A stretch of 19,084 bases of DNA from a virus. Its lineage: Duplodnaviria > Heunggongvirae > Uroviricota > Caudoviricetes. The notes beneath the pieces are model-generated. The model was given only the letters and a program-made list of their open reading frames with translations, was not told where the DNA came from and did not search any database. Below are positions 2,946-17,597 of the stretch, piece after piece; the stretch's first letter is position 1; each line of letters starts with the position of its first letter. A program made the position numbers and the translations under genes. Where the stretch lies: IMG/VR virus record IMGVR_UViG_2744054976_000008; one strand, written 5' to 3'.

Positions 2946-3391
2946 AATGAAACCAGTATATAAAGCGATGAACAACTAATTAATTAATATCTCGGGGCTA
3001 AAGAAATATATTCATGATTAATTGTATTAACAGGTGGTTAGTAGACTTGTCTTTTCCTCCAAAATTACATTTTAAAAACATTTTACTTGTAATTTTTTTT
3101 TGCAACAAATCGGTATAAATTTCACACAATGCTCGAAAAAAATGATAATTACACAGTGTTATAATAAGCATTGTTACCATGTTGTTGATGAAAGACACCT
3201 TAGTTTCATGGCTTATTATTTTAATTTGTATTATTGTGTATGTATGAAAGAAAACACAAGCGCGGATGGGACAAAACTGAGACACAAAAGGCCTCACAAT
3301 GGCTTGCAAGGCTTTACATGTTTTGATGTGGTGGGACGTGTGAGCGCAGTGTTGATGGGGTAATGCTTTGAATTAGAAGCGGATTCTTATA

Positions 3392-3437
3392 ATTCGTAAT
3401 GCGAAGGTCGTAGGTTCGACTCCTATTATCGGCACCA
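3392..3437 (+). tRNA. Partial tRNA-Thr(CGU) gene, 3' 46 nt only (pseudo-tRNA / att remnant, ptwF-like)
   Basis: ATTCGTAATGCGAAGGTCGTAGGTTCGACTCCTATTATCGGCACCA matches the anticodon loop (CGT) through the 3' CCA of E. coli tRNA-Thr (thrW) as recalled from memory. No D-arm or acceptor 5' half is present upstream. Confidence 0.7.
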
Positions 3438-3438
3438 T
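3420..3438 (+). repeat. attL core: 19-bp direct repeat CTCCTATTATCGGCACCAT
   Basis: Identical 19-mer recurs at 16108..16126. This copy is the 3' end of the tRNA-Thr fragment and sits immediately upstream of the integrase gene. Confidence 0.75.
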
Positions 3439-3601
3439 CACCTAGTTTTCCCAAGTCAACCCACATCAACAAAATCATTTAAAAACATATATATTACGTT
3501 GTTTTCATACGTTTGAGGTCAACCCTTGTCTCTTGAAATCAACACGCGGTTGGGGGCACAATCAGGGGCATGTTCTGTTCGGTCTAGGAAATGTGCCCCC
3601 A

Positions 3602-4792
3602 ATGATGCTGAATGCCCGCAAGGTTGAAGCTGCGAAAGGAAAAGAGAAGAGCTACAAGCTGTTTGATGGAGGTGGCCTATACCTTCAGGTCGAACCTAAT
3701 GGCTCGCGTTACTGGCGTATGAAATACCGTTTTGCTGGTAAAGAGAAACGATTGTCCTTTGGTGTTTATCCAACAGTCACACTTGCTGATGCCAGACAAA
3801 AACGAGAAGACGCGAAGAAACTACTCGCAGCAGGTGAAGATCCCGGCGAAGTCAAAAAAGCCAAAAAGCAGGCTTTAAATGCAGCGATTGAGACACTTAA
3901 CCCATTCAGAGAAGTGGCGTTAGAGTGGCACAAAATGAAATCACCCAAATGGTCTGAGGGCTATGCTTCCGACATCATTGAGGCATTCGAGAAAGACATT
4001 TTCCCGCATATTGGGCACAGACCTATAGCTGATATTCAGCCCCTTGAACTGCTTGAAGTTCTGAGGTTGATAGAAACTCGAGGCGCTATGGAGAAAGCGA
4101 AGAAAGTCCGTCAGCGATGCGGTGAAGTTTTTCGCTATGCCATCGTAACGGGTAGGGCAATCTACAATCCGGCACCGGATCTTGCCAGTGCGATGCAAGG
4201 ACATGAAGCAGTCCACTATCCATTCCTCAAAGCCAACGAACTACCGGAGTTCTTTAATGCCCTTAATTCTTATTCAGGAAGTCCAATTGTATTGTTGGGG
4301 GCGCATTTACTTATCCTGACAGGTCTACGAACTGGAGAACTACGAGCAGGTGAGTGGCGAGAGGTGGATTTTGATAATGCGGTGTGGGAGATCCCAAAAG
4401 AACGTATGAAAATGCGTAGGAGCCATATTGTCCCGTTGTCAAAACAAGCATTATCCCATCTCAAAAGTTTGAAAGAACTAACTGGGAACTACCCGCTGAT
4501 GTTCCCTGGACGCAACGATCCTAGCAAATTTATGAGTGAAGCAAGCATTAATCAGGTGTTTAAACGTATTGGATATGCAGGGCGTGTTACGGGGCATGGT
4601 TTCAGGCATACGATGAGTACAATCCTACATGAGAAAGGATTTAACAGCGCTTGGATTGAAACCCAGCTTGCTCATTCGGACAAAAACTCTATTCGTGGAA
4701 TTTATAACCATGCCCAATATCTCGAAGGGAGAAGAGAAATGATGCAATGGTATGCTAATTATTTATCTGAGCTAATTGGTACTCATAAATGA
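3602..4792 (+). CDS. int: Tyrosine-type site-specific integrase (P4-like, with N-terminal arm-binding domain)
   Basis: Track ORF 3533..4792 starts at a TTG; the likely start is ATG 3602 (MMLNARK...). N-terminus KSYKLFDGGGLYLQVEPNGSRYWRMKYRFAGKEKRLSFGVYP resembles the integrase arm-type DNA-binding domain. Catalytic signatures: LTGLRTGELR, HGFRHT and a C-terminal tyrosine region (GIYNHAQY). Confidence 0.9.
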   Translation: MMLNARKVEAAKGKEKSYKLFDGGGLYLQVEPNGSRYWRMKYRFAGKEKRLSFGVYPTVTLADARQKREDAKKLLAAGEDPGEVKKAKKQALNAAIETLNPFREVALEWHKMKSPKWSEGYASDIIEAFEKDIFPHIGHRPIADIQPLELLEVLRLIETRGAMEKAKKVRQRCGEVFRYAIVTGRAIYNPAPDLASAMQGHEAVHYPFLKANELPEFFNALNSYSGSPIVLLGAHLLILTGLRTGELRAGEWREVDFDNAVWEIPKERMKMRRSHIVPLSKQALSHLKSLKELTGNYPLMFPGRNDPSKFMSEASINQVFKRIGYAGRVTGHGFRHTMSTILHEKGFNSAWIETQLAHSDKNSIRGIYNHAQYLEGRREMMQWYANYLSELIGTHK

Positions 4793-5613
4793 ATATTTTA
4801 AAAATTAATAATACTGATTCTCTGCTCAGAGATTACTACCAGTTGGATGAAGCTTCAGAAAAAATTGGTTGTAGTGAAAAGGATATACTCTGGTTTGCCA
4901 GAGAACGAGATGTAGAGCTATGCATGGAATTCCATGATGATGAGTATGATGTTTCATGTGGTTTGAAGATTGATGGTCAAATGGATGAGTTCTTATCTAA
5001 TCTGAAATATTTACCACGAGATAGAAATGGCAATATTATGTTGTCAGACTTAAGTTCTATAAGAATCCCTGATGAAGATAATTTAATTGATAAAAATGGT
5101 TTTATTCGATGTTTCATATCCGGTTTATGGGCTGTTGATTATGAATATAAAGATCTGTTAGTTAAGCATGAGGGGCAACCGGATTCCTGGCCTATTCATT
5201 TTCTACTGGCGGGTACGCCTAATATAAATTGTAAGGTAATTCTTTATGTAAATTATGATGAAAAAGAAAATTATTATCTTTTTGAGGTTTTGTGGATTAC
5301 AAAGGTACAGATTCAAAAATTCATTGATATAGTCTTATGCGAACAAAAGCGGATAAAAAACGCCAATAAATATAAATCACAATCTGAGGCGCAAAAACAA
5401 AAACATGCTGTTCCTCGAGCTGAAATACTCATGGCTATTATTTCGCTCTATCATCGTGATATGAGGCTAAGAAGAGAGAGTCCAGCAGCGATAGCTGATT
5501 ATCTTTTTCAACATGCCAGTGAGTTCTGGCCTAAGACCGGAGAACCGCCTTTGAGCTATGATACTGTTGTTAGTTTGCTACGTAGTTGCATGAAAAACAT
5601 TAAGTTTAACTAA
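4789..5613 (+). CDS. Hypothetical protein (274 aa), AT-rich, translationally coupled to int; possible N-terminal HTH
   Basis: Its ATG overlaps the int stop (ATGA at 4789-4792). The ORF is long, uninterrupted and AT-rich, with no motif I can assign; the N-terminal segment LDEASEKIGCSEKDILWFARE is HTH-like by eye. Confidence 0.6.
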   Translation: MNILKINNTDSLLRDYYQLDEASEKIGCSEKDILWFARERDVELCMEFHDDEYDVSCGLKIDGQMDEFLSNLKYLPRDRNGNIMLSDLSSIRIPDEDNLIDKNGFIRCFISGLWAVDYEYKDLLVKHEGQPDSWPIHFLLAGTPNINCKVILYVNYDEKENYYLFEVLWITKVQIQKFIDIVLCEQKRIKNANKYKSQSEAQKQKHAVPRAEILMAIISLYHRDMRLRRESPAAIADYLFQHASEFWPKTGEPPLSYDTVVSLLRSCMKNIKFN

Positions 5614-5738
5614 ATATTAACAATTATTGTGGCTAATGATTTTGGATTTTTTTCATTAGTCACATTTTTCTCATTTATAACCTATGTTTTAATTTTCCGT
5701 GTTGAAGCCAATAGACTTAGATAAACGGAGAATGATGA

Positions 5739-6029
5739 ATGTTATCTAAACATGATAATACTACTTTGCAACGACCTTCAATGGATTCTCTGATCGATAT
5801 GAAGTTTATTACTTCCGATTGTTTATTAAGTGATAAATGGATTTATCGATTGATTTCTCTGAATCGCTTTCCAAAACCTATAAAAATAGGTCGGATGTCA
5901 CGATGGCGCGCTGCTGATTATTATAAGTGGCGAGATGGGTTTGAAGAAAACTCAGGTCAACATTTTGAGGGAATGAGAAATAAGGCAAGAGCAATTAATA
6001 AAGGGAATAGATTATCACCTACTCCCTAA
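5739..6029 (+). CDS. alpA: AlpA-family phage transcriptional regulator / excisionase-like DNA-binding protein
   Basis: GGAG lies 9 nt upstream of ATG 5739. Core MKFITSDCLLSDKWIYRLISLNRFPKPIKIGRMSRWRAADYYKW resembles AlpA/Xis-type winged-helix proteins (FPKPxKxG...W...W). Confidence 0.7.
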   Translation: MLSKHDNTTLQRPSMDSLIDMKFITSDCLLSDKWIYRLISLNRFPKPIKIGRMSRWRAADYYKWRDGFEENSGQHFEGMRNKARAINKGNRLSPTP

Positions 6030-6061
6030 GCCTTAATTGATAGTTAGTAATATTTAACTGA

Positions 6062-6235
6062 TTAGCCTTTAGGGTCAATCCCGCGTGATTGGAGTTCTTT
6101 GCGTAAAATTCTTTTAATCCAAGTTGCCAACGCGCTATCTCCATCTTTGCGCATTTCGTTTTCGAGTTGCAACCTAAAATCGTCGGTAAGACGCATTTGG
6201 AATGGTGGAGAACGTTTCTCTTGTGGTGTTGACAT
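6062..6235 (-). CDS. Arc/Mnt-like ribbon-helix-helix repressor (58 aa); absent from the ORF track (below its size cutoff)
   Basis: Manual minus-strand translation from ATG 6235..6233 to TAA 6064..6062 gives MSTPQEKRSPPFQMRLTDDFRLQLENEMRKDGDSALATWIKRILRKELQSRGIDPKR. The PPFQMRLTDDFRLQLENEMRKDGDS segment parallels the P22 Arc N-terminal beta-strand and helix A (PQFNLRWPREVLDLVRKVAEENGRS, from memory). Confidence 0.55.
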   Translation of the reverse strand: MSTPQEKRSPPFQMRLTDDFRLQLENEMRKDGDSALATWIKRILRKELQSRGIDPKG

Positions 6236-6275
6236 GGTAATTACCCTAGAATATGATGACTACATGGTAATTACC
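6233..6275. promoter_or_regulatory. Twin operator-like palindromes: two copies of ACATGGTAATTACC, each with a perfect 10-bp palindrome GGTAATTACC, 30 bp apart
   Basis: Direct repeats at 6233-6245 and 6263-6275; GGTAATTACC is self-complementary. The first copy overlaps the start codon of the minus-strand RHH gene. The region is the divergent control region between the RHH gene and the rightward early operon. Confidence 0.55.
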
Positions 6276-6303
6276 ATTGTAAGTATAGTTCGCTTGTAAA
6301 AGC

Positions 6304-6338
6304 AATGCCCGATTGTGCGGGAACACAAATCGGGCATT
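6304..6338. promoter_or_regulatory. Perfect 11-bp inverted repeat AATGCCCGATT / AATCGGGCATT with a 13-nt loop (regulatory hairpin or weak leftward terminator)
   Basis: Seen directly. On the minus strand it is followed by GCTTTTAC; on the plus strand there is no U-tract. It lies at the transition from the AT-rich to the GC-rich part of the element. Confidence 0.35.
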
Positions 6339-6366
6339 TAACCAACCGTTATAAGAGGTAACGAAG

Positions 6367-6543
6367 ATGGCTAAACAGAAGTGTACCTGGTTATTTGCGG
6401 CGATCAACCGCAGTCAACGCAATGCCCGTCCTGTGATGTTAAGGATCACCGCAGATAACGAGCGGTCAGCGCGGCGCAGACTTGCCCCGGACTATGTACT
6501 GAGCTTTGCCGGGCGCATTCCCTGCGGAGGTGAACATGCGTAA
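6367..6543 (+). CDS. Small protein (58 aa), possibly Icd-like host cell-division inhibitor of P4-type elements
   Basis: AAGAGG lies 8 nt upstream of ATG 6367. Translation: MAKQKCTWLFAAINRSQRNARPVMLRITADNERSARRRLAPDYVLSFAGRIPCGGEHA. Its stop overlaps the next gene's start (ATGCGTAA). Not in the ORF track (under 60 aa). The family assignment rests on recollection only. Confidence 0.4.
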   Translation: MAKQKCTWLFAAINRSQRNARPVMLRITADNERSARRRLAPDYVLSFAGRIPCGGEHA

Positions 6544-6895
6544 TTATCCGCACCCCGGCGAACGCTGGCAGCATGAACGTGGCTGGACGGTCACGATTAT
6601 CCGATTAATAGAAGCCTCGCCCTCTGTGGCGCTGGTTAATCCTGAATTCAGCTGTGAAGTGCTGATACGTCATGACAGCGACAACCAGCTTTCTTCCTGC
6701 CCTCTGGCATGGTTTGAACAGCGGTATACGCGCCTGTTTGATGTACCGCTCTTTAAGCCTGCACCAGCTCCTGCAGGCGGTAGTGGTTCCGGCCCGCTGA
6801 CACTGCATCCGTCTGTGCTATTTATCCGCTGGCGGGAGCGTAGCATATGGCGTTCTGCTGAGCCTGACGACGGTCACTATTCAAAGTTTCTCTGA
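6536..6895 (+). CDS. Hypothetical protein of the P4-like early operon (119 aa)
   Basis: Track ORF 6506..6895; the likely start is ATG 6536 with GGAGG 7 nt upstream. Collinear and overlapping with its neighbours. Confidence 0.55.
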   Translation: MRNYPHPGERWQHERGWTVTIIRLIEASPSVALVNPEFSCEVLIRHDSDNQLSSCPLAWFEQRYTRLFDVPLFKPAPAPAGGSGSGPLTLHPSVLFIRWRERSIWRSAEPDDGHYSKFL

Positions 6896-6926
6896 CAAAA
6901 TACCGCTGAAAACGGAGTAATCCACG

Positions 6927-7211
6927 ATGAATATTTCAAACGGGCACAACGGTGCTCAGGGCCACACTTTGCCTGAAAAACACAATACCGGTGCTTTTGC
7001 CTATGGGTTGTCAGAGGACAGTTTCGGAAAGCTGACCCGCGCAAGAAATGCCTGCGACATGCTCCAGCTTCTCTTTTCTGAATACCCGTCTCAGGCCGGA
7101 GCACTGGACGCTGGCTGTGCGCATGGTGTCGCCGCGCTGATGGAGTACCTGCGGGCAGATTTGACGGATATTGCACACAGTTGCGCACTGATTGAAGGAG
7201 GTGCCAGATGA
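6927..7211 (+). CDS. Hypothetical protein of the P4-like early operon (94 aa)
   Basis: Track ORF; GGAG upstream; its stop overlaps the next start (ATGA at 7208-7211). Confidence 0.55.
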   Translation: MNISNGHNGAQGHTLPEKHNTGAFAYGLSEDSFGKLTRARNACDMLQLLFSEYPSQAGALDAGCAHGVAALMEYLRADLTDIAHSCALIEGGAR

Positions 7212-7591
7212 ACCAGCCGCAGGTTTCCATTTTCCCGGCAGAAATGACCACCGCGCTTTACCGGCGAGCTATTGCTTCAGCATGGCGGCAGAAAATGCTG
7301 AACGAAACTGGCAGTGATCAGTATGGTCCGCACAGCCTGACGGTGGAGCGTATTGAAATGGCCATTGCGCTGCATATCGAGTGCGTACTGATTAACGAGT
7401 ACGGCGAAGTGCAGGGCGCCGCTGCCGCGCTGGCACTGCTGACTGACATGCTGGAGCCGTCACTGCTAACCGCACCGCCGGTACTGACCGCGCGCGGCTG
7501 TGAAGTGATGGCGGAGATGTACCGCACGCTTCCGGCGGCCTTTGATGACTTCTGCAGTACCGGTGTGACGTTGTATGAGGGGGAAGTATGA
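7208..7591 (+). CDS. Hypothetical protein of the P4-like early operon (127 aa)
   Basis: Track ORF; GAAGGAGG upstream; ATGA overlap with the primase gene start at 7588. Confidence 0.55.
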   Translation: MNQPQVSIFPAEMTTALYRRAIASAWRQKMLNETGSDQYGPHSLTVERIEMAIALHIECVLINEYGEVQGAAAALALLTDMLEPSLLTAPPVLTARGCEVMAEMYRTLPAAFDDFCSTGVTLYEGEV

Positions 7592-10260
7592 CAATACAGA
7601 CGGTTACGCAGATTTCAGCCGCCGCACGGGGGAAATGGCCCGTTATTCTGCAGATGCTGCGTATTGATGTACCTGAAAACGGCAGGCACGGTCCCTGCCC
7701 GAAATGTGGGGGCAAGGATCGTTTTCGCCTTGATGACCTTGACGGGCGCGGGACGTGGATCTGCAGCCAGTGTGGCAATGGTGATGGTCTGGATCTGGTT
7801 AAGCTCGTAACCGGTTACAGCGTCAGAAAGGCTGCGCAGGAGGTGGCGCAGGTGCTTAATGTGCCGGATGTGCAGGAACTGCCTGTTAAGCCTGCCAGAC
7901 AAAAAGCCCCTAAACGCGACATGGGTCTTACCGTGGCGGCGCTGATGAAAGAGAGCCACACGGGAGAAAGCGCCTATCTGACAGAAAAAGGGTTCGCCGG
8001 ATACCCGGCCTCTCTGACCGGAAGCGTGCAGCATATCAGCGGTAAGGATTTCCCTGCCGGTTCCCTGCTGTTACCACTCACGACCAACACCGGAGCCGTG
8101 ACCGGTGCACAGCTTATCGCCCCGACGGGTGAAAAAAGCATACTGCCCGGCAGCACGATGAAAGGCGCGTTTGTGTCGCTCAGCCCGTTACCGTCTGAAC
8201 CACCGGTACAGGTGGTGATTACCGAAGGTTACGCTACGGCGCTGACGGTAAGCCAGCTCACTGCCGGATGCGTAGTGGCTGCCATATCTGCGGGCAACCT
8301 GCCCAATGTGGCGCAGTCGCTGCGGGCACGCTGGCCTGAGGTAAAAATTATCATCGCCGGTGATAACGATTTTCAGGACGGGGGTGAGAATCCCGGCAGA
8401 GCCTTTGCTGAACGGGCGGCAAAAGCTGTTGGCGGTTGGATGACGCTGCCACCAGGAGAGATTAAGGCTGACTGGAATGACTTTCATCGGGAGCACGGTA
8501 TTACCCGTGCCCGTGAAGCCTTTCGCAACGGTCTGGTACTGTGCGGGGAAGGCCGCACGCAACTGCCGCACGGGTTCCGTCTTACCCAGGAATATCTCTG
8601 GTATGAAAAGCAGGTACAGCGCAACGGTGAGACGGAGATCCAGAACGTCAAAATATGCAGCCCGCTGCGCGTGACGGCAATCACCTGCGATGCCGATGGC
8701 GGTAACTTCGGACGACTGCTGGAATGGGAAGATACGTGGGGTGAGCGTCGCCGCTGGGCGATGCCGATGGAAATGCTGAGCGGCAGTGGTGAGGAACTGC
8801 GCCGGGTACTGCTGGTTAACGGGCTGTCTTATATCAGCACCACCGGCGAGGCACGCGCACGCCTGATGGAATATATCTCACTGTGTAAACCGGAACGCCG
8901 CGTGACCTGCGTCAGCCGTACTGGCTGGCATGGTCAGGTTTACGTCCTGCAGGATGAGGTCAGCGGTGAAGGTGCAGAGGGTGTCATTCTCCAGACCACT
9001 TCCGTGCAGGGGCGTGATTTCCGCGTGTCGGGCACAACAGAGGAATGGCGGGAGAACGTATCCCGCTACTGTGCCGGCAACTCCCGCGTGGCATTTGCTG
9101 TCAGCCTGGCCTTTGCTGCACCACTGTTACGGCTGGTTGGTATGGACGGCGGCGGCTACCACCTCAAAGGGGAATCGACAGACGGTAAGACCACCACCAT
9201 GAAAGCGGCAACCTCCGTCTGCGGCGGGCCTGACTACTGGCAGACATGGCGGGCCACCGGCAACGCGCTGGAGGGATGCGCCAGCCGCCGCAACGATGCC
9301 GCCATGATGCTTGATGAGATCCGGGAAGTTGACGGACGCGAGGCAGGCAATATCGCCTACATGCTGGCAAACGGTCAGGGCAAGGGCCGTGCCGGTACGG
9401 ACGGTGAGCTGCGTACCCGTAAGCAGTGGCGCCTGTTGTTCTTTTCAACTGGCGAGTTGTCTCTGACCGAACATGCGGCAAAGGCCGGTGAGCGTACTTT
9501 TGCCGGGATGGAAGTCAGGATGATCCAGATCCCCAGCGATTCCGGGAAATTTGGCGTTTTTGAGGAACTGCACGGCTTCGACAGCGGCAAGGCTCTGGCA
9601 GAGCATCTTGAATGGGCCACGTCCTGCTACTACGGTTCGCCGTTCCGGGAGTGGCTGAAAGTACTGACCGCTGATCTTAATGGACTAACGGCACAGGCAA
9701 AATCGCTGATGAAGGAATATGCTGCCGCCCTGACTCCGAAAGATGCAGGCAATCAGGTGGGCCGGGCTGTGAATCGCTTTGCACTGGTGGCGATGGCGGG
9801 TGAACTGGCAACCCGTCTGGGTATCACCGGCTGGCCTGAGGGTGAAGCACTGCGGGCAACCCGCGTCTGCCTGAACGCATGGCTGAAAGATCGCGGGCAC
9901 ACCGCCAATCAGGAAGATATTGCCGCACTGGAGCAGGTTCGCAGTTTCTTTACCGCGAATCAGTACAGCCGCTTTGCAGACTGGTATGACGAGCGCAACC
10001 GCCCCGGCAATATGGTGGGCTGGCGCAGGGTGGAGAAAGGCAGTACCGCGCAGGGCACGGAAGCTGTCACTACGTTCTATGTCATGCCGTCCGGCTGGAA
10101 AGAAATCTGCAGGGGATTTGACCCGCGCAAGGTGGCGCGTCTGTGCGCAGATCGTGGATACCTGCTCCCCTCCACTGATGGCAAACTCCAGACAACCATT
10201 CGCCCGCCAGAGATGAATCCCCGCAGGCTCTATGTCTTCAACAGCAAGGTGCCGGGTTAA
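7588..10260 (+). CDS. P4 alpha-like bifunctional DNA primase-helicase (zinc ribbon + Toprim + P-loop NTPase)
   Basis: 890 aa. N-terminal Cys4 zinc ribbon CPKCGGKDRFRLDD...WICSQCG; Toprim signatures VVITEGYATA and IIIAGDNDFQDGG; Walker A GESTDGKTT in the C-terminal half. Confidence 0.85.
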   Translation: MTIQTVTQISAAARGKWPVILQMLRIDVPENGRHGPCPKCGGKDRFRLDDLDGRGTWICSQCGNGDGLDLVKLVTGYSVRKAAQEVAQVLNVPDVQELPVKPARQKAPKRDMGLTVAALMKESHTGESAYLTEKGFAGYPASLTGSVQHISGKDFPAGSLLLPLTTNTGAVTGAQLIAPTGEKSILPGSTMKGAFVSLSPLPSEPPVQVVITEGYATALTVSQLTAGCVVAAISAGNLPNVAQSLRARWPEVKIIIAGDNDFQDGGENPGRAFAERAAKAVGGWMTLPPGEIKADWNDFHREHGITRAREAFRNGLVLCGEGRTQLPHGFRLTQEYLWYEKQVQRNGETEIQNVKICSPLRVTAITCDADGGNFGRLLEWEDTWGERRRWAMPMEMLSGSGEELRRVLLVNGLSYISTTGEARARLMEYISLCKPERRVTCVSRTGWHGQVYVLQDEVSGEGAEGVILQTTSVQGRDFRVSGTTEEWRENVSRYCAGNSRVAFAVSLAFAAPLLRLVGMDGGGYHLKGESTDGKTTTMKAATSVCGGPDYWQTWRATGNALEGCASRRNDAAMMLDEIREVDGREAGNIAYMLANGQGKGRAGTDGELRTRKQWRLLFFSTGELSLTEHAAKAGERTFAGMEVRMIQIPSDSGKFGVFEELHGFDSGKALAEHLEWATSCYYGSPFREWLKVLTADLNGLTAQAKSLMKEYAAALTPKDAGNQVGRAVNRFALVAMAGELATRLGITGWPEGEALRATRVCLNAWLKDRGHTANQEDIAALEQVRSFFTANQYSRFADWYDERNRPGNMVGWRRVEKGSTAQGTEAVTTFYVMPSGWKEICRGFDPRKVARLCADRGYLLPSTDGKLQTTIRPPEMNPRRLYVFNSKVPG

Positions 10261-10293
10261 GGCTTTGCGTGAGTCTTATTTATTAAGGGTAAC

Positions 10294-10482
10294 AGGTGAA
10301 ACAGGTGGAACAACCGTATTTTACAGGGCTGAACCTGTTCCACCTTCTGAAATAGTGAGGTGGAACAGATGTAACGCCAGCCAATCCGCTGTTCCACCTT
10401 GTTACCCGCGATGTTCCACCGGTGCAGTGCATATAAATGCTTTACAAAACAAAGCAGTAACACATGTTTCACCTGTTCCACC
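10294..10482. repeat. Iteron array: eight copies of the 9-mer TGTT(C/T)CACC in both orientations; putative P4-type ori/crr
   Basis: Copies start at 10294 and 10304 (reverse orientation), 10336, 10359 (reverse), 10390, 10412, 10465 and 10474. They sit in the non-coding gap between the primase gene and the Psu-like gene. P4 ori/crr is built from a repeated TGTTCACC-type octamer bound by alpha (from memory). Confidence 0.6.
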
Positions 10483-10660
10483 GCATAAGGGACATACAGC
10501 AGACTGAAACAGAGGGCATTTTTATCTGGCTGGCTTTCATAGCCACGTCTGAATAACCGCAATCGCGCGTTGTGCCAGCCACCATACACTGAGCACCGAT
10601 AGTGTGCTTGTGTCAGCCACGACACAATTTACGTAACGAATCAACCCGACAGGAGAAGTC

Positions 10661-11422
10661 ATGAACAACACCGCAGTGAATAACAATCTTTCCTCTTTTC
10701 CGGCTGTAACGCAGCGGGCACTGGAAACCATGAACACAGCCAGAAACGCATGGCTTGAAGCACGTCGTCAGCAGAAAGCGGCAGCGGATAATATTGCGAC
10801 AATCCGCCAGCGCCGCGCTGAAATGGAAGCCACGACTAACGCGCTGAATGAGGAGTGGCGCACGCTGTTTCGTGAAAGTCAGGGCGTAGTCTCAAAGGAA
10901 ATGAAAAAACTGCGTACGGAAATTGCGCTGGGGCGTGAAACGCTTGAGGATTTTGATGAGCTGCTGACTGCTCAGGAAAGCGAAAATGCATTATTACCGC
11001 AGGAAGCCGGGAAATTAGCCGGGCAGTATATCAGCGCACATAACACCCTTGTGGAAATTCGCGCAAAGCAAATCTGGGAAGACTTCATGCAGTCGCATGG
11101 AAAAGCGCTTATTCAGACGCTGAGCCTGCTTAAATCAACAATGGGCCGGGAAGCCAGTGCTGTTGTGGGTGTGGTGAATTCAGTTAATGACCCGGACACA
11201 GTGCTGAAAGACTTTATTCATAAACATATCACCAGACCGGCTCTGGCTAACGATGCGATGCCTGAACAGGACCCGGTGTTTAAACTGGCGGGAGTTGCCC
11301 CGGATTATGCAGCTCTTGCTGATTTCCGCAAAATTCCTTCTCCGGCAGCCCTTCATAAAATGAAGATCCGGCAGGAACGTGAGGAACTACAAAAACGTAA
11401 CCGAGCTGCGGAGGGTATCTGA
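10661..11422 (+). CDS. P4 Psu-like (polarity suppression) or Sid-like coiled-coil protein
   Basis: 253 aa, strongly helical and charged; AGGAG upstream. The segment SAHNTLVEIRAKQIWEDFMQSHGKAL resembles my recollection of P4 Psu; the gene lies immediately upstream of an Ogr/Delta gene as in the P4 late operon. Psu versus Sid cannot be resolved without an alignment. Confidence 0.5.
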   Translation: MNNTAVNNNLSSFPAVTQRALETMNTARNAWLEARRQQKAAADNIATIRQRRAEMEATTNALNEEWRTLFRESQGVVSKEMKKLRTEIALGRETLEDFDELLTAQESENALLPQEAGKLAGQYISAHNTLVEIRAKQIWEDFMQSHGKALIQTLSLLKSTMGREASAVVGVVNSVNDPDTVLKDFIHKHITRPALANDAMPEQDPVFKLAGVAPDYAALADFRKIPSPAALHKMKIRQEREELQKRNRAAEGI

Positions 11423-11694
11423 TGGCATTGAAATGTCCTTTCTGTTCAGCCATTGCACATTGTCGAGCCAGTGTGTACGAAGCCCCCTCTGTAAAGAAAA
11501 CGTACTACCAGTGCCAGAATCTGGAATGTTCAAGCACTTTTACGGCGCTTGAATCAGTGCATACCATTATCACCCGCCCGCAGAAAGAAGAGAATACGCA
11601 GACAGTAGAGGAGGCTACAGACAAAAAAGGGCAGACACTGAATCGCTATGGCTCTGCATCCAAGCTTTCCAGCCGCCAACAAATCCCTGTCTGA
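11422..11694 (+). CDS. Ogr/Delta-family zinc-finger late transcription activator
   Basis: MALKCPFCSAIAHCRASVYEAPSVKKTYYQCQNLECSSTF has the C-x2-C...C-x4-C spacing and YxCxN motif of P2 Ogr / P4 Delta. Start overlaps the upstream stop (TGATG). Confidence 0.8.
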   Translation: MALKCPFCSAIAHCRASVYEAPSVKKTYYQCQNLECSSTFTALESVHTIITRPQKEENTQTVEEATDKKGQTLNRYGSASKLSSRQQIPV

Positions 11695-11709
11695 TTCTCC
11701 CCTACATAC

Positions 11710-11733
11710 TCCCGGTCCTGAGCCGGGATTTTT
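11710..11733 (+). terminator. Rho-independent terminator after the Ogr/Delta gene
   Basis: TCCCGG-TCCTGAG-CCGGGA stem-loop followed by TTTTT, 16 nt after the stop codon. Confidence 0.7.
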
Positions 11734-12312
11734 ACGCCTTTTCTTGGCTGGCTTGAGGACGTATGAGTGCATGTCTATGGCGCATGAAAACGCATGAGTT
11801 CCATGCACCAATTTTGACGCGAAAGCCCTTGTGTTGCGGTTCCTGAGACGATTTACGGGGTGCATGAAAACCATTCTGTTAAGCGAAATGGGTAGGCGGG
11901 CGGGGCTGCGCACGTGGTAGGGCTAAATGGTCAATTCTGGTGCAATTCGCGAAACTCAGTCAGTTTCAATAGATGTAAGTGTTGCTGGGGGAGATTCGCT
12001 ACTTTTTGGTATCCTAAATCGTATGGTTCGATGTTGATCATCTTTTCTTCGCACCTGCAGAGATATCAATTAAATGTGAACAAATAAGAGTCTGGATCTT
12101 CCCATATCGCTAAAACCGCCAGTATTGTTAGGGATGATGCCCATATTATGCGGTGGGGACCAGCGAGCCGCCAACTTGTCAGCGTGGCCTACACAATTTC
12201 ATGCAGGTGACTGAAACTATTACATTAAGTGGTCAAGTGTAGCGAGGATGCGATTGCGCGCAACGATGTAAAGAGTTATAAAAGCATAAAGGATAGTACT
12301 GTGAGGGGGGTT

Positions 12313-13590
12313 ATGAACCGGCAGCCATTTACTTCATCAGCACTTAAGCGTAACTTGAGTGAAAGTGAGAAGAGTTTTTATTTTAATAAAAACAATGTGG
12401 ATAAATTAGAATCATTAATCAGTGATGCTGTTTTAATTGCCAGCGAAAATTTTCGTTCTGGAGTAACTGTAAAGAAAATAAATATCAAAGGACGTTGTGT
12501 TTACAACGCATCTTGTTTAAAAGAAAAACTAATACTTAGACATTGTAATGCAAACTTAAAATGTTTGGAGTCACTTCTACCCAAACAAAGAAATAAAATA
12601 ATTGATGAGCTTAAAATTTATCTCAAAGAAGGTGCACAATTCCGAGTGTATCGCTTAGATATAAAATCTTTTTTTGAATCTATCGATTTGCCTCAGCTCT
12701 TTCAATATTTGCAAGATGAACGGCGTTTATCCAGACATACTAAAAATTTGATAGAATGGTATCTTAAAGCTTGTGAAAGAATCCATTCATCAAAAGGTTT
12801 GCCAAGAGGACTGGAGATTAGTCCTATGTTATCTGAGCTATATTTGGCAGCATTTGATAGTAGTATTCATCGGCATTCAGAAGTGTTTTATTACTCTCGC
12901 TTTGTAGATGATATGGTGATCATTTCAAGTGGAAATGAATGCCCATCGACTTTAATGAAACAAATACAAAGTTTGTTACCCAAGGGATTAAGTTTAAATA
13001 CAAATAAGTTGAAGGTGTCCCCACTTATCGACAAAAGAAGCAAAGGCACGGCAGGTAAAGATAAATTACTCCATAAATTTGATTTTTTAGGTTACTCTTT
13101 TTCTGTAATAGATTCTCCTCTAAGTAACAAAGGTGCTACTTTAAGTGTATATAGAAAAGTAACTGTAGATTTATCTCGTGGACGCATAAAAAAAATTAAA
13201 ACTAGAATAGCAAAAGCTTTCTACTCCTACCATAGAACTGGTGATTTTAAATTGTTATTAGATAGAATTTCTTTTTTAACAAGCAATAGAGATTTAAATA
13301 GGAAGATTAGATCATTAAGTTCATTAGAGAAAGGTAAGGTTAGTACTGGAATTTATTATAGTAATGCAAGATTGGATGTAAATTCTATATCCTTAAAGCA
13401 ATTAGATGATTTTTTATTATATTGTGTTAAATCGAACAACGGACGTTTGCATAGTATTGCGAAACATTCCTTCACTGTAAACCAAAGAAAGGAGTTATTG
13501 CGCAATAGTTTTAGAAAAGGTTTTGTTGATAGAGTTTATAGGAAGTACAATTTCAAACGTTACACTGAGATCACAAAAATATGGCTATAA
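12313..13590 (+). CDS. Reverse transcriptase 1 (about 425 aa; defence-associated RT, candidate DRT3a/UG3-like)
   Basis: Track ORF 12229..13590 starts at a GTG; the likely start is ATG 12313 with GAGGGGGG upstream. RT motifs: RLDIKSFFESID (motif 1/2-like), GLPRGLEISPMLSELYLAAFD (motif B-like), YYSRFVDDMVIIS (catalytic F-x-D-D, motif C), LHKFDFLGYSF. Strongly AT-rich codon usage unlike the flanking backbone. Confidence 0.8.
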   Translation: MNRQPFTSSALKRNLSESEKSFYFNKNNVDKLESLISDAVLIASENFRSGVTVKKINIKGRCVYNASCLKEKLILRHCNANLKCLESLLPKQRNKIIDELKIYLKEGAQFRVYRLDIKSFFESIDLPQLFQYLQDERRLSRHTKNLIEWYLKACERIHSSKGLPRGLEISPMLSELYLAAFDSSIHRHSEVFYYSRFVDDMVIISSGNECPSTLMKQIQSLLPKGLSLNTNKLKVSPLIDKRSKGTAGKDKLLHKFDFLGYSFSVIDSPLSNKGATLSVYRKVTVDLSRGRIKKIKTRIAKAFYSYHRTGDFKLLLDRISFLTSNRDLNRKIRSLSSLEKGKVSTGIYYSNARLDVNSISLKQLDDFLLYCVKSNNGRLHSIAKHSFTVNQRKELLRNSFRKGFVDRVYRKYNFKRYTEITKIWL

Positions 13591-15599
13591 AGAAAAATGT
13601 AAAACTTGATAAGAAGGATTACCTCAGGGCTTTACTATGTGATACGCAACCAGGTGACTGTCCCATCATCTTTTCAAATGATGGATTGTATTTGAACCTG
13701 ACCGAGTTTGAAAATCATTATAAGGAGATTTTGTATTTCTCTCCCCTTTCTTCATTCGTAAAGAAAATTATTAATCCTGCTTTTGATTTGTCTATAAAAA
13801 TAGAAGAACGAGAAAAAGACAAGAAGAAACAAAGCTTTCCGTTTGGCTATTGCATTGTCAAGGATGCTTTTAGTTTAAGATATCTTTCTTTAATTCATCC
13901 CAGATCGCAACTTAATTATTGTGAGTTTTATAAAAATTACTCAACTGTTATAACATTAAATGCGTCAAAAAGTAATTACTCTATAAGATATCCTCGAAAG
14001 GTCGCAAACTCATTCTTCTTATATGAAAATAATGCCTCAGAGAAATATAAAGGAGAGGATATTGAAACAACAAATGATGAATTAATGAGGAAGTATTCAT
14101 CATCTTATTTTTCTTATGGCGGATTTAATAGGATATATAAGTTATTTCAAAGTAAAATGTTTTTTGATCTTGAGAAAAGATTCTCAATAATGTGGATGTT
14201 AGATGTATCACATTGTTTTGATAGTATATATACTCATTCTATTTCATGGGCTTTAAAAAATAAACCTTACATCAGAAAACATGTGAAATATAGCAATCAA
14301 TTTGGTCAGGAACTAGATACGTTGATGCAACGTAGTAATAATAATGAAACAAATGGTATACCTATAGGCTCAGAATTTAGTCGGGTCTTTGCTGAGTTAA
14401 TATTCCAGCGTATCGATTGTAGTATTGAATCAAATCTTTTTGATGAATACGGGTGGGTTAATCACGAGGACTATGTGATATTAAGGTATGTGGATGATTT
14501 TATAGTGTTTTGCAACAATGAAGCAAATGCTGAACTTATCACTAAAACCATTAACGTGAAGCTAAATGATTTTAATCTTCAGTTAAATATCAATAAACTT
14601 AAAAAATATTCTAGACCATTCTGCACTAGCAAGACAGGATTGATCATTAAAGTTAACGAACTAGTGCGGAATCTTGAAGGTAAATTATATAAAAGGATTG
14701 ATGGTGACATTTTTCTAAATAAGATTAGAAGCAAGCATGATTTAAAAGTGAATATGATAAATAATATCAAGTCTATATGTGTTGATAACAAGGTTTCTTA
14801 CACGGATATTTCCTCGTATCTGATATCTTCATTATCAAAAAGATTAATATTAATTATTGATTTCTTTCCGGTGGAAAAGATTAAAGGTGATGTTGAAATA
14901 CGTAAGAATATTAAAGATATTATATTTTTAGTAACTGATATAATGTTGTTTTTCTTCAGTGTTAACCCAACTGTGTCATCTTCATATAAATTATCAAAAA
15001 CAATGGTTATCGTTAATGATTATTTGAAAATGCTTTCAAGTGATTATAGCAGTATTTTTATGACAACATTAATAGATACTGCTGAAAATATCAATTTTGG
15101 TGAAAATGACAATGGTCTTTTTATTGATGGGTTTATTTCCATAGAGAAAGTTAATTTGATATTAGCTGCTACTTTTTTTGGGGATAATTATCTTGTAAGC
15201 ACTTCTTTCTTTAATGGTATTATACATAAAAAGAAATTGGATTACTTTACAATAATCTCATTATTATTCTATTTTAGAAATAGAAAACCTTATCAAGAAC
15301 TTAAACATATTGTTGAGGTTAGAATTAAAGATTTGCTATATCCTGATATGGATTTATTACAATCATCGGAAAAGGCACATTTATTCTTGGATGTTATGTC
15401 TTGCCCATTTGTTTCAATTGAGACAAGACGATTTTTGTACAGAAAATATCTCAAAAAATATGAGAAAAATGTGAATAGAAGCCATTTGGAAATTGAGAGC
15501 GATCTGCAATCTATGCTCAAAACTTATTGGTTTGTCAAGTGGGATGAGTTAGATCTTGTAAAGATGATTGAGAAAAAAGAATTGAAAGAAAGTTATTAA
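13581..15599 (+). CDS. Reverse transcriptase 2 (672 aa, with a long C-terminal extension; candidate DRT3b/UG8-like)
   Basis: ATG 13581 overlaps the RT1 stop by 10 nt. RT motifs: MLDVSHCFDSIYTHSISW (motif A-like), GIPIGSEFSRVFAELIF (motif B-like), ILRYVDDFIVF (YVDD catalytic motif), LQLNINKLKK. About 300 aa follow the fingers/palm region. AT-rich. Confidence 0.8.
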   Translation: MAIKKNVKLDKKDYLRALLCDTQPGDCPIIFSNDGLYLNLTEFENHYKEILYFSPLSSFVKKIINPAFDLSIKIEEREKDKKKQSFPFGYCIVKDAFSLRYLSLIHPRSQLNYCEFYKNYSTVITLNASKSNYSIRYPRKVANSFFLYENNASEKYKGEDIETTNDELMRKYSSSYFSYGGFNRIYKLFQSKMFFDLEKRFSIMWMLDVSHCFDSIYTHSISWALKNKPYIRKHVKYSNQFGQELDTLMQRSNNNETNGIPIGSEFSRVFAELIFQRIDCSIESNLFDEYGWVNHEDYVILRYVDDFIVFCNNEANAELITKTINVKLNDFNLQLNINKLKKYSRPFCTSKTGLIIKVNELVRNLEGKLYKRIDGDIFLNKIRSKHDLKVNMINNIKSICVDNKVSYTDISSYLISSLSKRLILIIDFFPVEKIKGDVEIRKNIKDIIFLVTDIMLFFFSVNPTVSSSYKLSKTMVIVNDYLKMLSSDYSSIFMTTLIDTAENINFGENDNGLFIDGFISIEKVNLILAATFFGDNYLVSTSFFNGIIHKKKLDYFTIISLLFYFRNRKPYQELKHIVEVRIKDLLYPDMDLLQSSEKAHLFLDVMSCPFVSIETRRFLYRKYLKKYEKNVNRSHLEIESDLQSMLKTYWFVKWDELDLVKMIEKKELKESY

Positions 15600-15870
15600 T
15601 CTGATAGAAATATAACTGTGGTCAGTTTCAAAATACTTACGTTATTATTGTTGATGTGTTTTTGCGTTGGCAGTAATACGATTTCGCTGGATCTGAAATC
15701 GGCTTAATTGCTTAAACTTAAGTTAATAAATTTGCTTAAGATCCGATCCTGTTAAGCAGGAGAAGGAGCTTTCAGGTTCAGTTGAGAGTAGTTGCTAGCT
15801 GTTTATAGCTTAACCAGAACAGCTTGTGGTGCTTACACACCTGATGTTGAGAAACTGGCCACACCTACGC

Positions 15871-16006
15871 CCATGCTTCCCATGCTTCCNNNNNNNNNNN
15901 NNNNNNNNNNNNNNNNNNNNNNNNNNNNNNNNNNNNNNNNNNNNNNNNNNNNNNNNNNNNNNNNNNNNNNNNNNNNNNNNNNNNNNNCCATGCTTCCCAT
16001 GCTTCC
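15871..16006. repeat. 9-bp tandem repeat (CCATGCTTC) interrupted by an unresolved 98-nt run of N (15890..15987)
   Basis: Two full units plus one base are visible on each side (15871-15889 and 15988-16006). The right-hand units are exactly in phase with the left (117 nt = 13 x 9), so the gap is consistent with 11 hidden units, about 15 in total. N bases are not biological sequence. Confidence 0.6.
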
Positions 16007-16107
16007 AGAGCTGTAAATGGAACTAAATTGTGGGGCATGTATGGGGGCATATCATTTTAAATAAATTATTATTTTCTTGTTTTTCAGTTTGTTATGTGCA
16101 TGTTTTG

Positions 16108-16126
16108 CTCCTATTATCGGCACCAT
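16108..16126 (+). repeat. attR core: 19-bp direct repeat CTCCTATTATCGGCACCAT
   Basis: Identical to 3420..3438. Here only the terminal 18 nt plus one base of the tRNA-like sequence are present; upstream sequence does not match the tRNA. Confidence 0.75.
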
Positions 16127-16251
16127 TAAAATCAAAGAGTTACCCCATATTTAAATACACCACGTTTCCTCCTGTGCCGTATTTGTGCCATTGTAACCTT
16201 GGCAATTCATCAAAATACTGTTCTGACATCAGGCAGTGCAGGTGCAGACAT

Positions 16252-16662
16252 TTAAGCCAATTGCTGCCGCCATTCTTTGACGTAGTCAATCAGGGCGCGG
16301 AGCTTTGGTGCAATATTGCGACGCTGTGGGAAATACAGATAGAAGCCCGGAAATTGTGGAAGAAAGTCATCAAGCAGCGATACAAGCTTACCGCTTTCAA
16401 TATATGGCCTGAAAGTTTCCTGAGTGGCAATTGTTATTCCTCCGCCGGCAAGAGCCAGCCTCAACATCAGACGCAGATCATTAGTCGTAATCTGCGGTTC
16501 AATCGCAAGGTCGAAAGTTCTCCCGTTTTCTTCAAATGGCCAGCGATAAGGCGCAACCTCCGGGGACTGACGCCAGCCGATACACTTATGGGTATTTCCC
16601 CCGGAGGCGAGAAAGCGCTCTCCACGCCCGGCCGCAAGGATCAGGACGACGGGGGCAGGCAT
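16252..16662 (-). CDS. yagP: LysR-family transcriptional regulator C-terminal fragment (YagP-like, ~136 aa)
   Basis: Track ORF 16252..16794; the LysR-like part is the C-terminal effector-binding-domain sequence ...DLRLMLRLALAGGGITIATQETFRPYIESGKLVSLLDDFLPQFPGFYLYFPQRRNIAPKLRALIDYVKEWRQQ, with no N-terminal HTH. The proposed start is ATG 16662..16660, which overlaps the paoD 3' end. Position next to paoD matches the E. coli yagP locus as recalled. Confidence 0.55.
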   Translation of the reverse strand: MPAPVVLILAAGRGERFLASGGNTHKCIGWRQSPEVAPYRWPFEENGRTFDLAIEPQITTNDLRLMLRLALAGGGITIATQETFRPYIESGKLVSLLDDFLPQFPGFYLYFPQRRNIAPKLRALIDYVKEWRQQLA

Positions 16663-17597
16663 GAATCCTCCTCCTGATGGAGACGTACAGAGGCGACTTC
16701 TGCCAGCACGGAGAGTGCCAGAGTATGCGCATCCCGGGCTTTGGGGAATATCCCGACGGGTGCCCGGATTTGCGTTGTTTCCTCCCTGGACCATCCCAGC
16801 TCGTGGAGCTTTTGCAGACGTAACGTGTGGGTTCGATAGCTGCCCAATGCGCCGAGATAAAAGGGTTTTGCTTCTCGCGCGGCCTGCAACACTGGCAGCT
16901 CCCGGTTGAGATCATGGCACAGCAAAATGACCGCCGTATCGGTATCGATCTGAGCGCTGGCTGAGGCCGGAAAAAGATCGAAGATATGGCTGTCATAGCC
17001 TGTGGCTGCTGCAAGACTCGCGGTTGCCTGCGCCTCAAGAGAACGTCCGTAAATCATCAGCCTGACGCATGGCCTGAACCCCACCTCAAAGCCATTGAGA
17101 TTCCAGCCCGTCCGGGTTTGCGTGGGCAGGCACACCAGCGATTGTGCTTGCGGATCGTAGCGCAGCCCCACCGGTTTTCTCTGTTCCAGGCGGTTCAGCA
17201 CGGCGAGCAGAGGCTGTGCCGAGCGTAGTTTATGGAGCGTCAGCGTGATCCCACCGCCGCAGGGCAGAACGATGTCAAACCACGGCGAACCTTCGCCATA
17301 GCGAATTTCGCGATCGCGGCCTGAGCCCATCATCTCCAGCGCTTCAAAAGCGGCAGCGGCCTCCACGCAGCCGCCAGAGACAAAACCGCAGTAACGACCA
17401 TCTTCGCGCACCACCATCTGCGCCCCGAGCGGGCGCGCCGCGCCGCCGCGTATCTCCACCAGCGTCACCAGCACCGCTCCTTTACCGGACATTAGCGCCT
17501 CTACGGCGAAGCGCAGAATGGTCCGGTGGTCATCGGTGAGAAACGCCTGCTCTGGCTTATGCCAGTGTTCGTCTTTGTCAAAAAGCGGGTATGACAT
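16641..17597 (-). CDS. paoD: XdhC-family molybdenum cofactor insertion chaperone PaoD (YagQ)
   Basis: 318-aa ORF from ATG 17597 with GGAGG upstream. Sequence MSYPLFDKDEHWHKPEQAF...GFVSGGCVE... is XdhC/CoxI-like and lies immediately downstream of a molybdopterin oxidoreductase gene, as in paoABCD. Confidence 0.85.
   Translation of the reverse strand: MSYPLFDKDEHWHKPEQAFLTDDHRTILRFAVEALMSGKGAVLVTLVEIRGGAARPLGAQMVVREDGRYCGFVSGGCVEAAAAFEALEMMGSGRDREIRYGEGSPWFDIVLPCGGGITLTLHKLRSAQPLLAVLNRLEQRKPVGLRYDPQAQSLVCLPTQTRTGWNLNGFEVGFRPCVRLMIYGRSLEAQATASLAAATGYDSHIFDLFPASASAQIDTDTAVILLCHDLNRELPVLQAAREAKPFYLGALGSYRTHTLRLQKLHELGWSREETTQIRAPVGIFPKARDAHTLALSVLAEVASVRLHQEEDSCLPPSS

Follow-up and report, generated by a model that had tools for sequence, protein, structure and literature searches.

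The stretch of DNA analysed here (referred to as the window) spans 19,084 bp and represents an entire deposited record, LRXG01000158.1 of assembly GCA_001563385.1; both window ends are therefore contig ends. It contains a satellite element at positions 3420-16126, which is delimited by an exact 19-bp direct repeat, CTCCTATTATCGGCACCAT (family D5), forming the attL core (3420-3438) and the attR core (16108-16126) on the + strand. Pfam matches to Zn_Ribbon_Prim/Toprim_3/DUF927, Psu and Ogr_Delta place the element among the P4-like satellites, in agreement with the PGAP product names, and a putative integrase ORF was found at 3533-4792. The sequence GGCGGGCGGGGCTGCGCAC at 11895-11913, between ogr/delta and drt3a, resembles the P2/P4 cos site. 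Such a site would put the DRT3 cargo between cos and attR, the cargo hotspot of the satellite. Positions 3389-3437, ending in the attL core, appear to match the 3′ 49 nt of the E. coli tRNA-Thr gene thrW. The 5′ half of this thrW-like sequence is missing; ARAGORN detected no tRNA at 3389-3437, and the Rfam tRNA model reached only 14 bits. Because of the missing 5′ half, the satellite seems to occupy a thrW-type att site, secondary or tandem, that another island left behind. Two short 9-bp arrays (10291-10312 and 10461-10482), consisting of AACAGGTGA and its reverse complement CACCTGTTC, were observed approximately 170 bp apart after the primase gene; they resemble P4 ori/crr-type iterons.

The satellite carries two reverse transcriptase genes on the + strand, drt3a (UG3-type, class 2; 12313-13590) and drt3b (UG8-type, class 1; 13581-15599), which follow each other immediately with an overlap of 10 nt. 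Drt3a matched the NCBIfam equivalog NF041747 with 362 bits (cut-off, 200) over residues 29-452 of the ORF starting at 12229, and aligned with chain A of PDB entry 9z6y (E = 4e-55); PGAP annotated the gene likewise in related loci L001-L003. Drt3b matched the equivalog NF041748 with 606 bits (cut-off, 350) and chain H of 9z6y with E = 2e-111, and is 100% identical to protein cluster P0001. With both proteins far above the equivalog cut-offs and matching the solved complex 9z6y, the system is DRT3.

The gene for the ncRNA of DRT3 systems lies in cis directly after drt3b, and the RNA displays a conserved ACACAC template loop (bioRxiv 10.64898/2026.05.04.722794). In EcoDRT3 from E. coli ECOR12, this RNA comprises 161 nt and starts 15 nt past drt3b (Wang, Yoneyama et al. 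2026, bioRxiv 10.64898/2026.05.04.722794). The RNA binds Drt3a and acts as the scaffold of the Drt3a/Drt3b complex. Poly(dTdG) is synthesised by Drt3a on its ACACAC loop, and the complementary poly(dCdA) is produced by Drt3b, for which no nucleic acid serves as template (bioRxiv 10.64898/2026.05.04.722794). Mutation of ACACAC abolishes both defence and poly(dTdG) in EcoDRT3, and DRT3 was found to be constitutively active and toxic in the absence of RecBCD (bioRxiv 10.64898/2026.05.04.722794). The EcoDRT3 ncRNA is also the subject of Deng et al. (2026), a study that PMC13314766 cites, and DRT3 is covered in the reviews PMC13314766 and PMC13213688.

The original prediction had named the region after the second reverse transcriptase gene as a candidate site of the ncRNA of the system. 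This was borne out by the ACACAC motif, a covarying closing helix and the sole match of a covariance model: the segment 15617-15863 (+ strand) is a DRT3 ncRNA gene and belongs to an already described family that was characterised in 2026. The boundaries of this core of ~247 nt were drawn from the predicted fold, covariance model R1 and the limit of conservation. The gene lies in cis, on the same strand as and directly after drt3b, with the 5′ strand of the closing helix P1 starting 18 nt past the stop codon. The ACACAC at 15835-15840 (+ strand), the predicted template for poly(dTdG) synthesis by Drt3a, is embedded in a 17-nt motif, ACACACCTGATGTTGAG, whose core columns were invariant in 36 aligned loci. 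Among the genome-scan loci having downstream sequence, about 60 of 66 DRT3 loci carried ACACAC 40-240 nt past the drt3b stop. In the enterobacterial satellite-borne loci this distance was 235 nt, versus 120-170 nt elsewhere. No ORF of at least 80 aa was found in 15600-16029, in keeping with the earlier remark that the region lacks a convincing ORF, and the sole one touching the region (16030-16677, + strand) extends across attR.

Folding of 15600-15889 gave a minimum free energy z of -4.0 and a long-range closing stem, P1, between 15617-15629 (UGUGGUCAGUUUC) and 15851-15863 (GAAACUGGCCACA), both on the + strand. An equivalent helix was present in 38 of 40 loci, where a segment ~17-31 nt past the stop pairs with a segment starting 17 nt after ACACAC, the sequences themselves being different. 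Cognate P1 strands displayed a mean duplex energy of -22.9 kcal/mol, compared to -10.5 kcal/mol for non-cognate strands (p = 4e-26), and compensatory changes were found in 12 of the 13 pairs. These duplex tests, which need no alignment, and a structure alignment of a subgroup replaced RNAalifold on a MAFFT alignment of 36 RNAs, which had yielded no more than 4 pairs owing to misalignment of the 5′ parts. In the subgroup alignment (A3; 21 non-enterobacterial DRT3 RNAs with explicit structure), P1, a GCAA-type hairpin and the template-abutting stem-loop together had 86.6% of their cells paired, compared to ~42% in slid controls. Changes on both sides occurred in 24 of 26 pairs overall and in 6 of 7 pairs of the template-adjacent helix. 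The R1 alignment places the counterpart of this helix in the window at 15786-15834 (+ strand), directly 5′ of the template. This stem-loop, equivalent to SL4, carries a 39-nt insertion, and in the R1 alignment GAGUA (15786-15790) pairs with UGCUU (15830-15834).

A covariance-model search had been suggested earlier as a check of the ncRNA assignment. We ran it with R1, which was built from 21 non-enterobacterial DRT3 loci only and thus contains no enterobacterial sequence. It yielded a single match in the window, at 15702-15850 (+ strand; 25.9 bits, E = 8e-5), a local match that excludes P1. Conservation with relatives sharing 80-94% Drt3b identity stops at CCACACC (15858-15864). The window RNA exceeds that of other clades by ~85 nt, with extra hairpins at ~15640-15680 and 15741-15770; owing to these hairpins, the ncRNA is longer by this length in enterobacterial, satellite-borne DRT3 loci. 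The smaller elements pointed out in the original prediction were found as described, namely a local stem-loop (CGATTTC at 15679-15685 and GAAATCG at 15695-15701) and repeated CTTAA motifs, of which there are four at 15703-15738.

Searches of Rfam 15 at gathering thresholds and at permissive E-values returned no family for this RNA, and no match to the RNA region was obtained in phage and plasmid collections. An nhmmer search with the published ECOR12 ncRNA produced no match in the window or in the compared DRT3 loci, which indicates that the family is too divergent for a sequence-only search. Scanning viral and metagenome contigs for the exact 17-nt template motif gave 132 matches, 24 of which were true DRT3 loci. 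The other 108, viral ones included, were not adjacent to a Drt3b gene, and in one contig (L320) the motif lay inside a 60-nt repeat; the exact motif alone is thus no evidence of a DRT3 RNA. A direct repeat, D4 (11959-11980 versus 15621-15642), was considered as a second RNA 5′ end upstream of drt3a and dropped: an exact 11-mer is expected by chance ~20 times within 13 kb, and the similarity does not extend further.

The second feature of the region is a 9-bp tandem array, (CCATGCTTC)n, at 15870-16006 (no strand assigned), separated from the end of P1 by 7 nt. Four units are readable in the window, and the array is interrupted by an N run of 98 bases (15890-15987). As the window is the whole deposited scaffold, the Ns represent a scaffold gap in a draft assembly. 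The same sequence, CCATGCTTCCCATGCTTCC, is present on both sides of the N run (15871-15889 and 15988-16006) with a start-to-start distance of 117, which equals 13 x 9, so that both sides of the gap are in register; the in-phase repetition of a 9-mer across the Ns that had been noted earlier was thereby confirmed. If the gap is in register, the array would comprise 15 units, 11 of them inside the Ns, a number within the range observed in relatives. Considered by themselves, the two 2-copy arrays are near chance, given that TRF reported 10 other small arrays of similar score elsewhere in the window. The array was accepted as real because relatives carry uninterrupted arrays at the same place.

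Three complete or chromosome-level E. coli genomes matched 15400-16300 at 98.4-99.6% identity over spans of varying length, and their arrays were uninterrupted with 8, 18 and 11 units. Further alleles were gathered from contigs encoding either the identical Drt3b (P0001) or the Drt3a of the window. This comparison of repeat number across related loci, another of the checks proposed earlier, revealed uninterrupted arrays of 2, 4, 5, 7, 8, 10, 11, 18 and 20 units at the same place among loci with identical Drt3b, and the flanks of these alleles were >98% identical. The smallest allele, with 2 units, came from a metagenome contig (L328); 4 units were present in L088, 5 in each of L081 and L082, 7 in L083, 8 in L336, 10 in L086, 11 in L089 and 20 in L085. 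The interior variant units CCGTGCTTC were common to L001 and L083. The array is therefore made up of identical units in head-to-tail order, and their number varies among close relatives, from 2 to 20 with 100% identical Drt3b, as is characteristic of a variable-number tandem repeat (VNTR).

Four other assemblies break or gap at the array. One contig (L090) terminates where the array begins, a second (L338) terminates inside it after three units, and a third (L337) has a 100-N gap at its left edge. The 18- and 20-unit alleles were found in chromosome-scale records only. Together with the recurrent breaks, this suggests that the gap in the window reflects a long array, which short reads cannot span; a 98-N scaffold gap would result. 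The expectation that the gap most likely hides further units was thus upheld by uninterrupted arrays of up to 20 units in relatives and by several assemblies breaking exactly there.

The distribution of the array is narrow. In loci whose Drt3b is 94% (L091) or 92% (L092 and L204) identical to that of the window, only two imperfect units occupy its position: CTCATGCTT CCCATGCTT in L091, TTCATTCTT CCTATGCCC in L092 and CTCATGCTT CCCATCCTT in L204. A clade with ~80% Drt3b identity (L004, L212 and L263) carries an unrelated linker of ~60 nt instead. A comparable array was absent at this position from about 88 other DRT3 loci, and the 17-mer scan of viral and metagenome contigs likewise revealed none except for the metagenome contig with 2 units, which is the same element. 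The two closest relatives in the genome collection (L005 and L006; Drt3b 67% and 82% identical, respectively) are represented by contigs that end within drt3b. A full-text literature search found no paper containing this repeat.

The best reading of the array is a lineage-specific VNTR that probably arose by slippage. In the simplest history, the linker of one sub-lineage would have held two imperfect 9-mers, CTCATGCTT CCCATGCTT, as a chance proto-repeat; these proto-units may then have become identical, and slipped-strand mispairing during replication would have expanded and contracted the array.

Separately, in a DRT3 locus of Chromohalobacter sp. HP20-39 (L008), whose Drt3b is just 40% identical, a perfect (GTGCTTCC)x6 array was observed at 5435-5482, ~230 nt beyond the ncRNA. 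Its unit GTGCTTCC nearly matches CCGTGCTTC/CCATGCTTC of the window. The resemblance is a probable coincidence, with a rough chance estimate of ~0.01; convergence would be the alternative. TGCTTCC arrays were also considered as markers of DRT3. None of 109 IMG/VR loci with such arrays encoded a Drt3 gene in tblastn searches, and most of the arrays resembled coding repeats of the Gly-Ser type; a TGCTTCC array thus does not mark a DRT3 locus.

The original prediction had listed part of an RNA, a variable-number repeat and an assembly artefact as options for the array. The RNA is the upstream segment, and both P1 and conservation end at 15863/15864. As it follows the closing helix and no other DRT3 clade carries it, the array does not belong to the conserved RNA. 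A promoter and terminator scan found no intrinsic terminator from the RNA to attR and only weak promoter-like matches. With no terminator between them, transcription probably runs on from the ncRNA into the array, which would form a 3′ trailer. It is predicted to leave the RNA fold undisturbed: with 0-20 units in silico, the P1 probability remained constant at 0.977 and template accessibility was unchanged. In predicted folds, pairing is possible between the final units of the array and G-rich boxes further downstream.

These boxes belong to GGGGCATGTATGGGGGCAT (16032-16050, + strand), which comprises two direct GGGGCAY boxes on the attR side. The 19-kb window has six exact matches to GGGGCAY, and all but one fall within 180 bp of an att core, at 3553, 3565 and 3593 (- strand) near attL and at 16032 and 16044 near attR. 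Inverted copies occur among the boxes at 3553-3599 and 16032-16050, as do copies overlapping the integrase ORF at its 5′ end. GGGGCAY boxes are kept in satellites with the unrelated linker (L004 and L212), and the linker between the RNA and these sites is not conserved between clades. From this pattern, the boxes are probably integrase arm-type sites; such a role would explain why GGGGCATGTATGGGGGCAT is conserved where the linker is not, and the array would therefore lie in a dispensable linker between the cargo RNA and the recombination site of the satellite.

Taken together, we are fairly confident that the locus combines a known DRT3 ncRNA with a separate, lineage-specific and probably neutral VNTR that contains an assembly gap. 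The 500-bp region would thus hold two separate things, the ncRNA gene at 15617-15863 and, 7 nt further on, a 9-bp minisatellite. The RNA itself is a longer variant, closed by a helix of 13 bp and carrying additional hairpins as well as a stem-loop abutting the template at 15835-15840. An unlikely, albeit not negligible, alternative is that the array constitutes a functional hypermutable 3′ extension of the ncRNA whose length tunes 3′-end formation, stability or abundance, the amount of RNA setting the output of a constitutively active and potentially self-toxic defence in the manner of a contingency locus or rheostat. The terminator of the EcoDRT3 RNA is located where the window has the array (bioRxiv 10.64898/2026.05.04.722794). 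As no terminator is predicted here, the array could sit in the 3′ tail of the RNA and affect end formation or stability. Several observations are consistent with tuning. The array lies 7 nt past P1 with no predicted terminator before it, at the equivalent of the place where the RIP-seq-defined EcoDRT3 RNA runs past P1 into its terminator; its copy number is highly variable among otherwise identical isolates; the units and the downstream G-rich boxes are predicted to form a long hairpin before a U/A-rich tract; and DRT3 reportedly acts constitutively, with toxicity when RecBCD is lacking. However, the array is missing from every other DRT3 clade, with an unrelated linker in sister clades, the predicted core fold and template accessibility are independent of its length, and it is located outside the promoters and ORFs of the system. 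We thus regard it as improbable that array length sets the level of mature ncRNA and of poly(GT/AC) DNA via a hypermutable 3′ trailer. If it did, a clonal E. coli population would gain heritable and rapidly reversible variation in defence strength and self-toxicity, and the near-identical (GTGCTTCC)6 beside the Chromohalobacter DRT3 locus would be convergent.

The remaining explanations have far less in their favour. That the units are candidate protein-binding sites amplified in tandem, e.g., degenerate inverted arm-type sites for integrase or excisionase, appears very improbable. The array is 25 bp from the two GGGGCAY boxes resembling arm-type sites, the reverse complement of the unit, GGAAGCATGG, weakly resembles GGGGGCAT, and the proto-unit of L092 reads GAGGGCATAGG on that strand; however, two mismatches fall in the G-run of the unit, L091 and L204 have not kept the proto-repeat as a GGGGCAY site, and the L004 clade uses the same att core without such an element. 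We attach hardly any weight to a small repeat peptide, either antisense MPHNLVPFTAL(EAW)nA or sense (MLP)n. In L002 and L003, PGAP placed hypothetical proteins over the array, as did a gene caller in L085-L087 and L089, and the unit length is divisible by 3. Yet the unit is stop-free in all six frames, so that open frames through the array arise automatically. Neither ATG is preceded by a Shine-Dalgarno sequence, L092 (GGGGTATG) has lost the antisense start codon, the ORF is just 16 aa in L091, and nothing resembling the peptide is encoded in the unrelated linker of the L004 clade. The annotated 'hypothetical protein' entries WP_332240278.1 and WP_432796428.1, at 4966-5166 of L002 and 4966-5103 of L003 (corresponding to window 15865-16038, minus strand), are the antisense MPHNLVPFTAL(EAW)nA; these calls are probably spurious, with a length that follows the number of repeat units. 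It is just as hard to credit that the N run hides unrelated sequence or that the repeat is an assembly artefact. A gap length given by a scaffolder is an estimate, and for an arbitrary length the chance of being in phase is 1 in 9; uninterrupted arrays with identical flanks in complete and chromosome-scale genomes argue against this explanation, as does the finding that the repeat was the only sequence between the flanks in about 15 related loci.

With the reading of a DRT3 RNA gene followed by a separate slippage array, the ncRNA is located in a P4-satellite-borne E. coli system as a longer variant that keeps the template, the adjacent stem-loop and the closing helix. This variant should be useful for annotation and for comparing how the RNA scaffolds the complex. 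A 9-bp VNTR of 2-20 copies explains the recurrent assembly break and could be used to type this satellite; annotating it as a protein, as PGAP does in some genomes, should be avoided. If the array does affect RNA 3′-end formation, it would represent a rare hypermutable tract tuning an RNA-dependent defence.

Several known systems offer comparisons. The combination of an RT-associated RNA and tandem-repeat DNA within the same system family is reminiscent of DRT10 and telomerase-like synthesis; DRT10-type repeats, however, are extrachromosomal RNA-templated products, whereas the repeat of the window is genomic and bears no match to the ACACAC product. A hypermutable tract attached to a defence system also recalls simple-sequence contingency loci, such as those of phase-variable restriction-modification and surface genes. 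In contingency loci, the tract lies in a promoter or reading frame and its length switches expression. The tract of the window has neither placement: it is located 3′ of drt3a, drt3b and the ncRNA core, and its 9-bp unit keeps the frame. A parallel in form is provided by the minisatellites of bacterial VNTR/MLVA schemes, replication-slippage arrays that are used in strain typing. Like them, the array consists of perfect short tandem units, varies in copy number in close isolates, is intergenic and disrupts short-read assemblies; unlike them, it resides on a mobile satellite right beside a functional RNA gene. Compared to the 161-nt EcoDRT3 RNA, the window core is longer at ~247 nt, has extra hairpins and shares no nhmmer similarity, and the locus, carried by a P4-like satellite, has a variable 9-bp array instead of an intrinsic terminator after P1. 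In both systems, the RNA directly follows drt3b, ACACAC lies immediately 3′ of a stem-loop, the ends are joined by a closing helix, and the partners, putative ones in the window, are Drt3a and Drt3b.
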